Source of the DNA: Thermoproteota archaeon
GTDB taxonomy: Archaea > Thermoproteota > EX4484-205 > JAAOZO01
Length of the DNA: 64,000 nt
Reading direction: 5' to 3'
NCBI GenBank assembly: GCA_041479945.1
Contig: JBGOYZ010000001.1
Location: 563-64,562 of the forward strand
Position numbers and translations under genes: made by a program. Positions 13,861 through 54,236 of the stretch are shown here, one piece after another; positions within the stretch are counted from its first letter, which is position 1; every line of letters starts with the position of its first letter. A model generated the notes under the pieces. That model did no database searches. It was not told the origin of the DNA and saw only the letters and a list, made by a program, of their open reading frames with translations.

Positions 13861-14039
13861 GTCCCGCTGTAGCTCAGCCTGGTAGAGCTTCCGAGCCTGT
13901 GAGGGCGAAGATGCTGTAGGTGTCGACCTTGTGTCGATCCGTTCAGCTTACCGGGCTAAAAGCAGAAACCGGATTGTCGCTGGAGGTCGATGACCGGCGA
14001 ATTCAAAAGCCGATGGCTGAAACTCCAGCCGGCGGGACC
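13861..14039 (+). tRNA. tRNA-like element, probably a multi-intron pre-tRNA (identity unresolved)
   Basis: 5' GTCCCGC...TAGCTCAGCCTGGTAGAGC is a perfect D-arm consensus. The 3' end GCGGGAC-C is exactly complementary to the 5' 7-mer. The two are separated by about 150 nt holding several local hairpins and a CTGTGAG loop. Confidence 0.4.
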
Positions 14040-14086
14040 ACTTCAACCGAGCGATAACCTTTTTACATAAACCGCAAAATGACCTC

Positions 14087-14196
14087 GGGCCCGTAGCTCA
14101 GCATGGTAGAGCGCCGGAGATGATGTCGGCGAGGCTTTTAACCCGGGTGTCTCGGGTTCGAAGGAATAATGCTTTCCGGAAGTCCCGACGGGCCCG
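14087..14196 (+). tRNA. tRNA-Lys(UUU) with two non-canonical introns
   Basis: GGGCCCG-TA-GCTCAGCATGGTAGAGC-G-CCGG[AGATGATGTCGGCGAG]G-CTTTTAA-CCCGG-GTGTC-TCGGG-TTCGAA[GGAATAATGCTTTCCGGAAG]T-CCCGA-CGGGCCC-G. Removing a 16-nt insert in the anticodon-stem 5' strand and a 20-nt insert in the T-loop gives a canonical Lys(UUU) tRNA. A TTTTTACATAAA box lies about 27 nt upstream. Confidence 0.8.
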
Positions 14197-35542: not shown

Positions 35543-35656
35543 GGGCCCGTAGCTCAGCATGGAAGAGCAGCAGATGTCGGGCTAGCTGATGCTCTTAACC
35601 TGATGGTCACGGGAATGGAATCCCGCCAGAAATGGGTTCAAATCCCATCGGGCCCG
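35543..35656 (+). tRNA. tRNA with multiple non-canonical introns, probably tRNA-Lys(CUU)
   Basis: GGGCCCG-TA-GCTCAGCATGGAAGAGC...CTCTTAA...CCCGC-CAGAA-ATGGG-TTCAAAT-CCCAT-CGGGCCC-G. The acceptor, D-arm and T-arm are canonical. A CTCTTAA Lys(CUU)-type anticodon loop is visible, but about 40 extra nt sit in and around the anticodon arm. The first insert (AGATGTCGG...) resembles intron 1 of tRNA-Lys(UUU) at 14117-14132. Confidence 0.65.
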
Positions 35657-35950: not shown

Positions 35951-37018
35951 ATGCAGGACGAGGTCAGAACCGCTCTAGCGGCGAAAGTACCCCTAGAGAG
36001 AGGTGAGCACGTAAGAACGCTCCTCAAGGATCTGGGGGCTGTCGATCTGGATCTCGCGCCTGCAGTTGAGGGGAAGTACCTCTTGGTTCCAGTACTGAAT
36101 CCTCAAAGACTCGAGGAAAATGCCGAACTACATCTGCTGGAACTGGTCGAACGCAAGCTGAGGGTGAACCATCGTAGGCCAAGGAGTGTAAAGGAGGCCC
36201 TTCTTGGGAATCTTCAACCTGACATAGTGGGTCAGATCACAAAATCCTTCGACATCATAGGTGATGTGGCAGTGGTCTCCACCAAGGAAAGGATGTCGAG
36301 GTACAGAGAAAACGTGGTGAATGCGTTGCTTTCGGTTCACCCAAACATACGGCTGATCTTGGCCAAAGTTGCTCCGGTTTCAGGGGTTGAACGGGTAGCT
36401 TCATACGAACGATGGTACGGGTCAGGCACGACGGAAACACTGCACAGAGAACACGGCTGCGTCTACGGTTTGGACGTGACCAAGGTGTTCTTCACCCCTC
36501 GACTGTCAACGGAGAGAAAGCGGGTGGCATGCCTCGTTGAACCGAACGAGACTGTATGTGACCTCTTCGCCGGCGTAGGCCCATTCTCGGTGCTCATAGC
36601 CAGACTGCAACCCTCCTCGCACGTCAAGTCCTGTGACATCAGTCCTGAGGCTGTCACCTATTTGAAGAGGAACGTACGACTCAACGGAGTATCCGACAGG
36701 GTCGAGATCTTCCAAGGGGATGCTGCGCAGGTATCGCACAAGTTCCTGAGAGGTTTGTGTGACAGAGTGGTGATGAACCTGCCCAAACAGGCTGAACTGT
36801 ACTTGGCAGCAGCTACAGAGGCGCTCAGGGCCCGGGGGGGAACAATACACCTCTATCTGTTCCGGAAGGCCCCCCAAACCTTCGAGGAGAGGATCTCGCG
36901 CGCGACGGCTGGACTCGAATCGCTGGGTTGGAAAGATGTGGAGGTTTCATTTCACAGGAGAGTCCGCGAGATAGGTCCAAGAGAGTTCAACGAAGTCGCA
37001 GACATGAAGGTGTCATGA
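35951..37018 (+). CDS. trm5: tRNA (guanine37-N1)-methyltransferase Trm5 family (Trm5/Taw-like)
   Basis: Class I MTase: DLFAGVGPFSVLIA, DISPEAVTYLKRNVRLNGV, VVMNLP (NLP motif). Confidence 0.75.
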   Translation: MQDEVRTALAAKVPLERGEHVRTLLKDLGAVDLDLAPAVEGKYLLVPVLNPQRLEENAELHLLELVERKLRVNHRRPRSVKEALLGNLQPDIVGQITKSFDIIGDVAVVSTKERMSRYRENVVNALLSVHPNIRLILAKVAPVSGVERVASYERWYGSGTTETLHREHGCVYGLDVTKVFFTPRLSTERKRVACLVEPNETVCDLFAGVGPFSVLIARLQPSSHVKSCDISPEAVTYLKRNVRLNGVSDRVEIFQGDAAQVSHKFLRGLCDRVVMNLPKQAELYLAAATEALRARGGTIHLYLFRKAPQTFEERISRATAGLESLGWKDVEVSFHRRVREIGPREFNEVADMKVS

Positions 37019-46742: not shown

Positions 46743-47297
46743 TTGTCAGAAGCAGAAATCATAGCCGAGCTTGTCAATGACCGCTTGGTTGTGTGGGACA
46801 TAGGAGCCTCCCGCAAGCTGTACAAGATGGGATACTTCGGAAAGCCGATAGGTGTTCCGAAACCGAAGGATTTCGAGTTCGATGCGCCACTCACACTGGA
46901 TCTTATCGAGGGACTCTACCTAGCGAGGAGAGAACTGATCAGGGTCGTCAAAGGGAACAAGCGAATAGGCCCGGCCGCTCTGGAGCGAGTGGCACGTCGG
47001 TATCACGAGCGGTTCGACCTGAAGTACAGGGTCTATGAGAACTTGAGGGGTAAGAACCTTGTGGTAGGTCCCGGGATCAAGTTCGGTTGCGATTTTGCAG
47101 TTTACGAACACGGCCCAGGAATCGATCATGCACCATTCCTGATCGAGGTCAAAGAGGCGGGTGACCAAGTGACAGCGGCTGACCTAGTGAGGGCCGGGAG
47201 ACTCGCCACCACAGTCAAGAAGAGATTCGTATTCTCCGTGGTCGACAAGAGGACATCTTCCATACACTACTTGGTAAGCAAGTGGTGGAAGGCCTAG
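46743..47297 (+). CDS. endA: tRNA-splicing endonuclease catalytic subunit EndA
   Basis: YLARRELIRVV, GPGIKFGCDFAVYEHG, HAPFLIEVK catalytic Tyr/His/Lys block. At 184 aa it is the short catalytic-subunit type. Confidence 0.85.
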   Translation: MSEAEIIAELVNDRLVVWDIGASRKLYKMGYFGKPIGVPKPKDFEFDAPLTLDLIEGLYLARRELIRVVKGNKRIGPAALERVARRYHERFDLKYRVYENLRGKNLVVGPGIKFGCDFAVYEHGPGIDHAPFLIEVKEAGDQVTAADLVRAGRLATTVKKRFVFSVVDKRTSSIHYLVSKWWKA

Positions 47298-53492: not shown

Positions 53493-54236
53493 TTGTTGCC
53501 TGGGATGGGCTATGATAGAGGAATTACCGTCTTCTCCCCTGATGGGCGTCTTTGGCAAGTGGACTACGCCATGATCATGGTGAACAACAGCCCCACGGCG
53601 TTGGGTGCCAGCTCCAGCAATGGTGTTGTCTTAGCCGGCATAGAGAAGAAGACCGACGCTCTGCAGGATAGGAGCTTCAGCCACAAGCTGTTCATCATTG
53701 ATGAGCACGTGGCGGCGACTGTCACCGGATTCACCTCTGACGCTAGGATCCTAATCGACATAGCTCGCCAGGAATCACAGACGAACAGGCTGCTCTACGA
53801 CGAGCCAATAGACATGAACTACCTTGCCAGAAGGCTCGGAGACATAATGCAGAACTACACACAGAATGCTGGGGTTCGTCCCTTTGGAGTTTCACTGATC
53901 ATCGGTGGTGTTGACCTGTTGGGTCCTTCGGTGCATCAACTGGATCCGAGCGGAATCTACAACAAGTACTTCCTCACTGCATCGGGAGTGAACAGAAACG
54001 AAGCCTTAGAGGCCACCAAGGCTATCTACAACAAGTCGGCGTCGCTGGATGTCCTCAAAGAGCTGGTGATGATAGGAATGATCGCGAGCAACAAGGCAGA
54101 AGCTTTGTCTGAAGTAGTCAGGATGACGTACATAGATGCTGGGGAGAAGAAGGTCACTCTTGCCAAGGACGAGGAAATCTCTGAGATATTCGAGAGAGCC
54201 TCCAAGAAACAGCCGCCCAAGGTTTCAGAGAAGTAG
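53493..54236 (+). CDS. psmA: Proteasome alpha subunit
   Basis: GYDRGITVFSPDGRLWQVDYA N-terminal alpha-subunit signature. Confidence 0.9.
   Translation: MLPGMGYDRGITVFSPDGRLWQVDYAMIMVNNSPTALGASSSNGVVLAGIEKKTDALQDRSFSHKLFIIDEHVAATVTGFTSDARILIDIARQESQTNRLLYDEPIDMNYLARRLGDIMQNYTQNAGVRPFGVSLIIGGVDLLGPSVHQLDPSGIYNKYFLTASGVNRNEALEATKAIYNKSASLDVLKELVMIGMIASNKAEALSEVVRMTYIDAGEKKVTLAKDEEISEIFERASKKQPPKVSEK

Follow-up and report, generated by a model that had tools for sequence, protein, structure and literature searches.

Introns at tRNA positions 30/31, 53/54 and 59/60, as well as tRNA genes that carry two or three introns, are documented in Crenarchaeota, Thaumarchaeota and Nanoarchaeota (PMC4090602, PMC8450103), and the published genome-wide record stands at 71 introns in 46 tRNA genes (PMC8450103). 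The multi-intron tRNAs of the Thermoproteales (Pyrobaculum, Thermofilum and Caldivirga), as far as the work of Sugahara et al. (2007/2008) is recounted in PMC4090602 and PMC8450103, have short non-canonical introns of the bulge-helix-bulge (BHB) type, at least two per gene, at sites that include the three above, and their hosts are described there as having a splicing endonuclease (EndA) with a Crenarchaea-specific loop. In two groups of soil Asgard archaea, Atabeyarchaeia and Freyarchaeia, 92-95% of the tRNA genes contain introns, over half with several and many of them non-canonical (PMC11291895). Position 30/31 is also the place where the split tRNA-Lys(CUU) genes of Nanoarchaeum equitans and Staphylothermus are broken (PMC4090602). 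As for the enzyme, non-canonical introns are cleaved only by the loop-bearing (alpha-beta)2 and the epsilon2 endonucleases (PMC5829648), and K44 of A. pernix EndA is needed to cut non-canonical and bulge-helix-loop introns (PMC3241643).

The region 14087-14196 of the window (the whole 64-kb stretch of DNA analysed here) is, judged by its sequence, a real lysine tRNA gene, tRNA-Lys(UUU), interrupted by two short introns at 30/31 and 59/60. Both the sites and the kind of intron are already documented, and the two-intron pattern is by itself ordinary for such archaea. It resembles that of the Thermoproteales in the short non-canonical BHB introns, in their number per gene and in the loop-bearing EndA of the host, which here, unlike the Thermoproteales, is an uncultured lineage from sediment metagenomes with its nearest named EndA relatives in Brockarchaeota and Bathyarchaeia. 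The Atabeyarchaeia and Freyarchaeia, archaea from wetland soil, are likewise intron-rich, but they belong to another phylum; their counts were obtained with tRNAscan-SE and R2DT, without the cross-species conservation used here, and the likeness is one of description only. The break at 30/31 in a lysine tRNA is the same as in the split tRNA-Lys(CUU) genes, except that the halves of the latter are transcribed from separate loci, and those in the window are joined in cis by an intron of 14-19 nt. Also, intron 2 lies at the same position as the known T-loop site 59/60 that is cut by an EndA with a specificity loop. That known site is a relaxed hBH motif handled by an epsilon2-type enzyme, whereas intron 2 has a strict hBHBh' motif and is accompanied by a crenarchaeal alpha-type enzyme.

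The gene lies on the forward strand and would give a 110-nt precursor in which CCA is not encoded, with the layout GGGCCCG-TA-GCTC-AGCATGGTA-GAGC-G-CCGG[AGATGATGTCGGCGAG]G-CTTTTAA-CCCGG-GTGTC-TCGGG-TTCGAA[GGAATAATGCTTTCCGGAAG]T-CCCGA-CGGGCCC-G. Exon 1 (14087-14117) holds the 5′ strand of the acceptor stem, the D arm and anticodon stem positions 27-30; one of its D-loop bases varies among the seven variants of the gene described below and the rest is invariant. Intron 1 (14118-14133, 16 nt, AGATGATGTCGGCGAG) interrupts the 5′ strand of the anticodon stem. Exon 2 (14134-14162) contains G31, the loop CUUUUAA, the 3′ strand of the anticodon stem, the variable loop, the 5′ strand of the T stem and T-loop positions 54-59, and a single variable-loop base is changed in one variant. 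Intron 2 (14163-14182, 20 nt, GGAATAATGCTTTCCGGAAG) lies in the T loop and is followed by exon 3 (14183-14196), with U60, the 3′ strands of the T and acceptor stems and the discriminator G73. Deletion of both introns gives 74 nt that ARAGORN calls as tRNA-Lys(ttt), with stems of 7 bp (acceptor), 4 bp (D), 5 bp (anticodon) and 5 bp (T), a 7-nt anticodon loop CUUUUAA (U33, purine at 37), the T loop UUCGAAU and G73. The first-pass annotation was thus correct in describing a tRNA-Lys(UUU) with two non-canonical introns, and the stem-loops that it expected after their removal (CCGGG-CTTTTAA-CCCGG and TCGGG-TTCGAAT-CCCGA) were reproduced. Its boundaries need correction, as intron 1 had been placed 1 nt off, at 14117-14132, and intron 2 had been placed 3 nt off, at about 14160-14179.

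We put the probability at roughly 0.88 that this region is a functional and independently transcribed tRNA-Lys(UUU) gene whose presumed transcript would carry two short BHB introns. In the precursor, each intron would pair with four exon bases that shortly precede its 5′ splice site. The splicing endonuclease would then cut two nucleotides into each bulge, presumably by means of the loop-bearing catalytic subunit encoded at 46743-47297; an RtcB-type ligase would join the exons into the 74-nt tRNA, to which CCA would be added post-transcriptionally. No RtcB-type ligase was found in the 64-kb window.

For the splice motifs, a BHB was defined as a 4-bp central helix with one 3-nt bulge on each strand and cleavage after the second bulge base. 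One strand of the helix consists of four exon bases ending 2 nt upstream of the 5′ splice site, the other of four intron bases that stop 2 nt short of the 3′ site. With respect to the flanking helices, the motif is strict if it is hBHBh′ and relaxed if at least one of h and h′ is present. Intron 2 has the central helix UUCG × CGGA (U54-A, U55-G, C56-G, G57-C), the bulges AAG and AGU, and a 3-bp inner helix GAA/UUC. Since the 5-bp T stem itself acts as the outer helix, it is a strict hBHBh′ motif. At intron 1, the exon strand CGCC pairs with the intron strand GGCG (C25-G, G26-C, C27-G, C28-G), with GGA and AGG as bulges; the length of the inner helix is 3 bp in the window sequence and ranges from 1 to 3 bp across relatives, falling to 1 bp in two variants. 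This motif uses positions 25-28 and hence competes with the anticodon stem and the last D-stem pair G10-C25, for which reason the site is a relaxed, alternative-fold BHB. Its 4-bp outer helix (G25-C32, A24-U33, G23-U34, A22-U35) can exist only when the D stem opens and its 3′ strand pairs with the anticodon loop instead. Only the tRNA-restoring register allows all four central pairs to form at both junctions, and the sole alternative register of intron 1 with an identical product keeps 2 of the 4. When each intron was shuffled (100,000 trials each), a full central helix together with an inner helix no shorter than the observed one was found in 0.12% of the trials for intron 1 and 0.33% for intron 2. 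Folding with ViennaRNA gives −30.3 kcal/mol for the BHB conformer against −47.5 for the minimum free energy structure; the BHB fold is not favoured and the energies therefore lend no support. An unfavourable folding energy is expected where bulges are stabilised by protein. The junction folds that the first-pass annotation had named as its check came out on its side, with a BHB-type motif at both junctions that is conserved in relatives.

The weaker motif of intron 1 leaves a small chance that the gene is real but that this intron is not recognised as a BHB. Cleavage would then take place at a relaxed bulge-helix-loop, or it would have to await a further step, for instance the excision of intron 2 or the binding of a chaperone, possibly in a slightly different fold. 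Besides the inner helix of just 1-3 bp and the competition of the outer helix with the D stem, such a reading can draw on a helix that may slip by one register (G30-C41 for G33-C41) and on the cleavage of bulge-helix-loop substrates by loop-bearing EndA (PMC3241643). Against this reading, the slipped register would give a product 2 nt too long, and every one of the seven variants can form the 4-bp helix with its two 3-nt bulges, which yields the right product.

These variants were collected by synteny. An RpoB identical to that of the window is encoded on 18 contigs, which come from JGI sediment metagenomes, from Logan assemblies and from the NCBI MAG GCA_964405495.1, and the tRNA-Lys(UUU) locus is identical in six independent assemblies (JGI, NCBI and Logan; six loci compared). 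RpoH homologues with 81-92% identity led to 16 further loci with the gene order rRNA dimethylase, DUF655, tRNAs, rpoH, rpoB. A search of representative genome contigs with RpoH returned distant archaea only (51-58% identity), with no syntenic tRNA and no orthologues; upstream of the RpoH match in two Bathyarchaeia (L007 and L008) the sequence appeared to be coding and to contain no tRNA gene, and tblastn with the window RpoB found no match in the stretches fetched from them. The pattern GTAGCTCAGNNNGGTAGAGCGCCGG, when used against metagenomes, hit many unrelated bacterial and archaeal tRNAs, with one orthologue (L116) among the matches listed. Also among the matches listed was an intron-less metagenomic tRNA-Lys(UUU) (L078), whose first 44 nt and acceptor stem equal those of the spliced window tRNA.

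Seven distinct variants of the gene (the window and six from relatives) lie between DUF655 and rpoH, and all seven have both introns at the same positions. Only 2 of the 74 exon sites vary, against 22 of the 36 intron sites. Intron lengths range over 15-16 nt (intron 1) and 18-21 nt (intron 2). The GGCG strand of intron 1 is invariant while its loop differs in sequence and length, and the intron strands of both central helices are invariant except for a C-to-A change in intron 2 that creates a G·A mismatch in two variants. Inner-helix changes in the relatives are of the kind A-U to U-A or G-U, and A-U to G-C, with two inner-helix pairs of intron 2 altered on both sides. Over the seven variants, 97.4% of pair cells are paired, a proportion that never exceeds 61% when the partners are slid. 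Changes on both sides are seen in three intron pairs, a number equalled by 21 of 500 shuffles; the covariation support is modest because most of the helix pairs never vary.

Upstream of the gene, an A/T-rich box TTTTTACATAAA (14060-14071, forward strand, 16-27 nt from the 5′ end of tRNA-Lys(UUU)) is likely to be an archaeal promoter element of the TATA type. The block GATAAC(C/T)TTTTTACA that spans 16-35 nt upstream is kept in nearly all of eight variants, and the spacer flanking it varies. These patterns bear on the idea of a dead tRNA pseudogene with two insertions that are never removed, for which speaks the rejection of the unspliced sequence by standard finders: with default settings ARAGORN calls no tRNA here or anywhere in the window, and the Rfam tRNA model gives 17.6 bits, below its gathering score of 29. 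The near-invariant exons, and intron helices that are kept while the rest of the introns drifts, point to a working gene instead. Together with the conserved promoter-like box and with BHB motifs that place both inserts in precisely the register needed for an intact tRNA, they leave the pseudogene with a very slim chance. A fortuitous likeness to a tRNA gene or an artefact of assembly, for which nothing but the failure of default tools could be cited, is hardly credible given the same locus in six independent assemblies, its conservation in relatives and shuffle probabilities of about 1e-3 per intron.

The first-pass annotation had also drawn attention to a C-box-like GATGATG in intron 1. The string is indeed present (14119-14125), but the meaning attached to it does not hold, as the intron has 16 nt, a D box is missing and the string lacks conservation. 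A C/D-box sRNA in a tRNA intron would need a C box of the form RUGAUGA together with a D box (CUGA) and some 10-12 nt of guide sequence, all of them conserved; intron 1 contains no CUGA. That intron 1 serves in addition as a C/D-box guide RNA has GATGATG in its favour and is nonetheless next to impossible, since a 16-nt intron without a D box is too small for a guide, five of the six variants from relatives lack the string, and the weak Rfam C/D matches nearby (E = 7-8.5) fall on the T-loop introns of a tRNA-Tyr gene and on a tRNA 3′ flank. The resemblance to a C box is a coincidence. Rfam matches to sR38, SNORD34 and YrlA (E about 2-8) were dismissed as weak for a C/D-box reading.

The gene at 46743-47297 (forward strand) encodes a predicted 184-aa catalytic (alpha) subunit of tRNA-splicing endonuclease with the Pfam domains PF02778 (tRNA_int_endo_N) and PF01974 (tRNA_int_endo). 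Its best relatives of solved structure are A. pernix 3P1Z_B (5e-43, 175 residues aligned) and S. tokodaii 2CV8 (4e-41), and the homotetrameric (alpha4) EndA of M. jannaschii aligns only from query residue 50 onward. The segment GVPKPKDFEF aligns with the A. pernix loop DVEKPRGADF such that K40 corresponds to K44 and K42 to R46. The Tyr/His/Lys triad is represented by Y121, H129 and K160, which match the motif residues of A. pernix; the structure of an H-to-A mutant (3AJV) marks the catalytic His. By these alignments, the protein is a crenarchaeal-type alpha subunit with the Crenarchaea-specific loop. In comparison with the A. pernix (alpha-beta)2 endonuclease (3P1Z; PMC3241643), the loop and the K44 equivalent are common to both; here the alpha subunit is the one identified and the activity is predicted. 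We infer the two-subunit (alpha-beta)2 architecture for the window enzyme; a profile of 120 EndA homologues found no second EndA-like ORF, as a candidate beta subunit, in the 64-kb window. The suggestion that this EndA fits a broad-specificity enzyme stands as regards the catalytic subunit and is helped by the loop lysine; the short length on which it had been based is no indicator, and it is the Crenarchaea-specific loop that suggests broad specificity. The 90% cluster of the window EndA includes a protein named 'Thermoproteota archaeon' (NCBI), in agreement with the 'Thermoproteota-like' host that had been proposed, and the nearest other named relatives are from Brockarchaeota (66% identity) and Bathyarchaeia.

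Beyond the flagged gene, the intron density nearby and a well-supported tRNA-Tyr with four introns add interest to the locus. The tRNA-Tyr(GUA) gene (13863-14037, forward strand, encoded CCA at 14038-14040) lies 50 nt upstream of tRNA-Lys(UUU). Its introns are at 30/31 (13894-13912, 19 nt, shuffle P 0.0012), at the canonical site 37/38 (13920-13967, 48 nt, P 0.013), at 53/54 (13984-14001, 18 nt, P 0.0002) and at 59/60 (14008-14023, 16 nt, P 0.0003), all on the forward strand and all with a 4-bp central helix. The two T-loop introns enclose a 6-nt micro-exon, UUCAAA. The spliced 74 nt are called tRNA-Tyr(gta) in 8 of 8 variants, the same tRNA bar one U·G-to-C-G change, and all 368 of 368 pair cells are paired, a value that none of 500 shuffles reached and that compares with at most 48% in slid controls. 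Both ARAGORN and Rfam missed the gene, and a weak Rfam 'C/D-box' match at 13982-14039 is really the pair of T-loop introns. In 8 of 8 variants the 48-nt intron keeps the core TCGATCCGTTCAGC unchanged, along with two internal hairpins, whereas the loops of the other introns drift; C/D boxes are absent from it. The tRNAscan-SE 2.0 paper states up to three introns per tRNA (PMC8450103), and our literature search found no paper that describes an archaeal tRNA with four. Supplementary Data 4 of the soil Asgard study contains a tRNA-Lys(TTT) for which four introns were predicted and three retained on curation (PMC11291895). The tRNA-Tyr exceeds the stated three; on account of the Asgard entry, we regard it as a probable rather than a certain record. 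With T-loop introns 6 nt apart, it would be a good substrate for studying the order of splicing and the limits of BHB recognition.

On the reverse strand, a BHB scan identified a tRNA-Asp(GUC) gene (13762-13655) with introns at 34/35 (13726-13713), inside the anticodon, and at 53/54 (13694-13676). Its spliced 74 nt are called tRNA-Asp(gtc), and the interrupted gene is conserved in relatives. The 53/54 intron AGGTCTTATGACCCGGGAG resembles that of tRNA-Tyr, AGGTCGATGACCGGCGAA (AGGTC..ATGACC), which hints at a common origin. The fourth gene is tRNA-Lys(CUU) (35543-35656, forward strand), with one intron at 30/31 (35574-35590) and another of 21-23 nt where the variable loop meets the T stem (about 35609-35631). 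Rfam scores it as a tRNA at 41.4 bits with a 53-nt insertion, and its spliced forms are called tRNA-Lys(ctt). The BHB of the second intron can form in two registers, of which one (21 nt) leads to a tRNA of 76 nt whose variable loop has 7 nt and the other (23 nt, 48/49) to the standard 74-nt tRNA; in one relative (L156), an exon U44-to-G change is compensated by an A-to-C change in the intron. Run with its intron option, ARAGORN reported 'Ser' for this gene and a spurious 'Arg' with a 1143-nt intron. We do not infer homology from the heptamer ATGTCGG that the 30/31 introns of both lysine tRNAs have in common, its structural roles being different. Downstream, at a distance of about 300 nt, tRNA-Lys(CUU) is followed by a gene for a Trm5/TYW2-like tRNA methyltransferase (35951-37018, forward strand), whose Pfam families were identified in the L155 orthologue.

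When the two strands of the window were scanned for an acceptor stem plus D arm, no other convincing tRNA emerged, and a candidate at 53544-53662 was rejected as it lies inside a coding region. Thus all four tRNA genes of the window are interrupted, by 10 introns in total (2.5 per gene), only one of which is at the canonical site. ARAGORN detected none of the four and a single one reached the Rfam threshold. Since default finders miss such genes, the tRNA complements and completeness of such MAGs will be underestimated by searches that are not intron-aware. Introns at 30/31 occur in three of the genes, both lysine tRNAs and tRNA-Tyr, and their recurrence at the known break point of split tRNAs bears on the relationship between tRNA introns and split tRNAs. 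The combination of multi-intron, non-canonical tRNA genes with a loop-bearing EndA is hereby extended to a sediment lineage outside the hyperthermophilic Thermoproteales. Whether this uncultured Thermoproteota lineage holds the densest tRNA intron load yet with comparative support is in our estimate an evenly balanced question; the likeness of the two 53/54 introns would then point to a recent spread of introns between tRNA genes. In a distant archaeon with a split rpoB (L149, 1537-1987), a tRNA-Tyr with the canonical intron only, a 5S rRNA and an intron-less tRNA-Asp lie directly upstream of rpoH. As the gene order there is the same without the extra introns, these are specific to the window lineage and the tRNA-rpoH neighbourhood is old. 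The gene that follows rpoB in the window (about 17907 onward, forward strand; 6383-9375 in L001) is called as a single 1275-aa product with all five Rpb1 domains, so that the large subunit A of RNA polymerase appears to be unsplit; a split into A′ and A″ is usual in most archaea.
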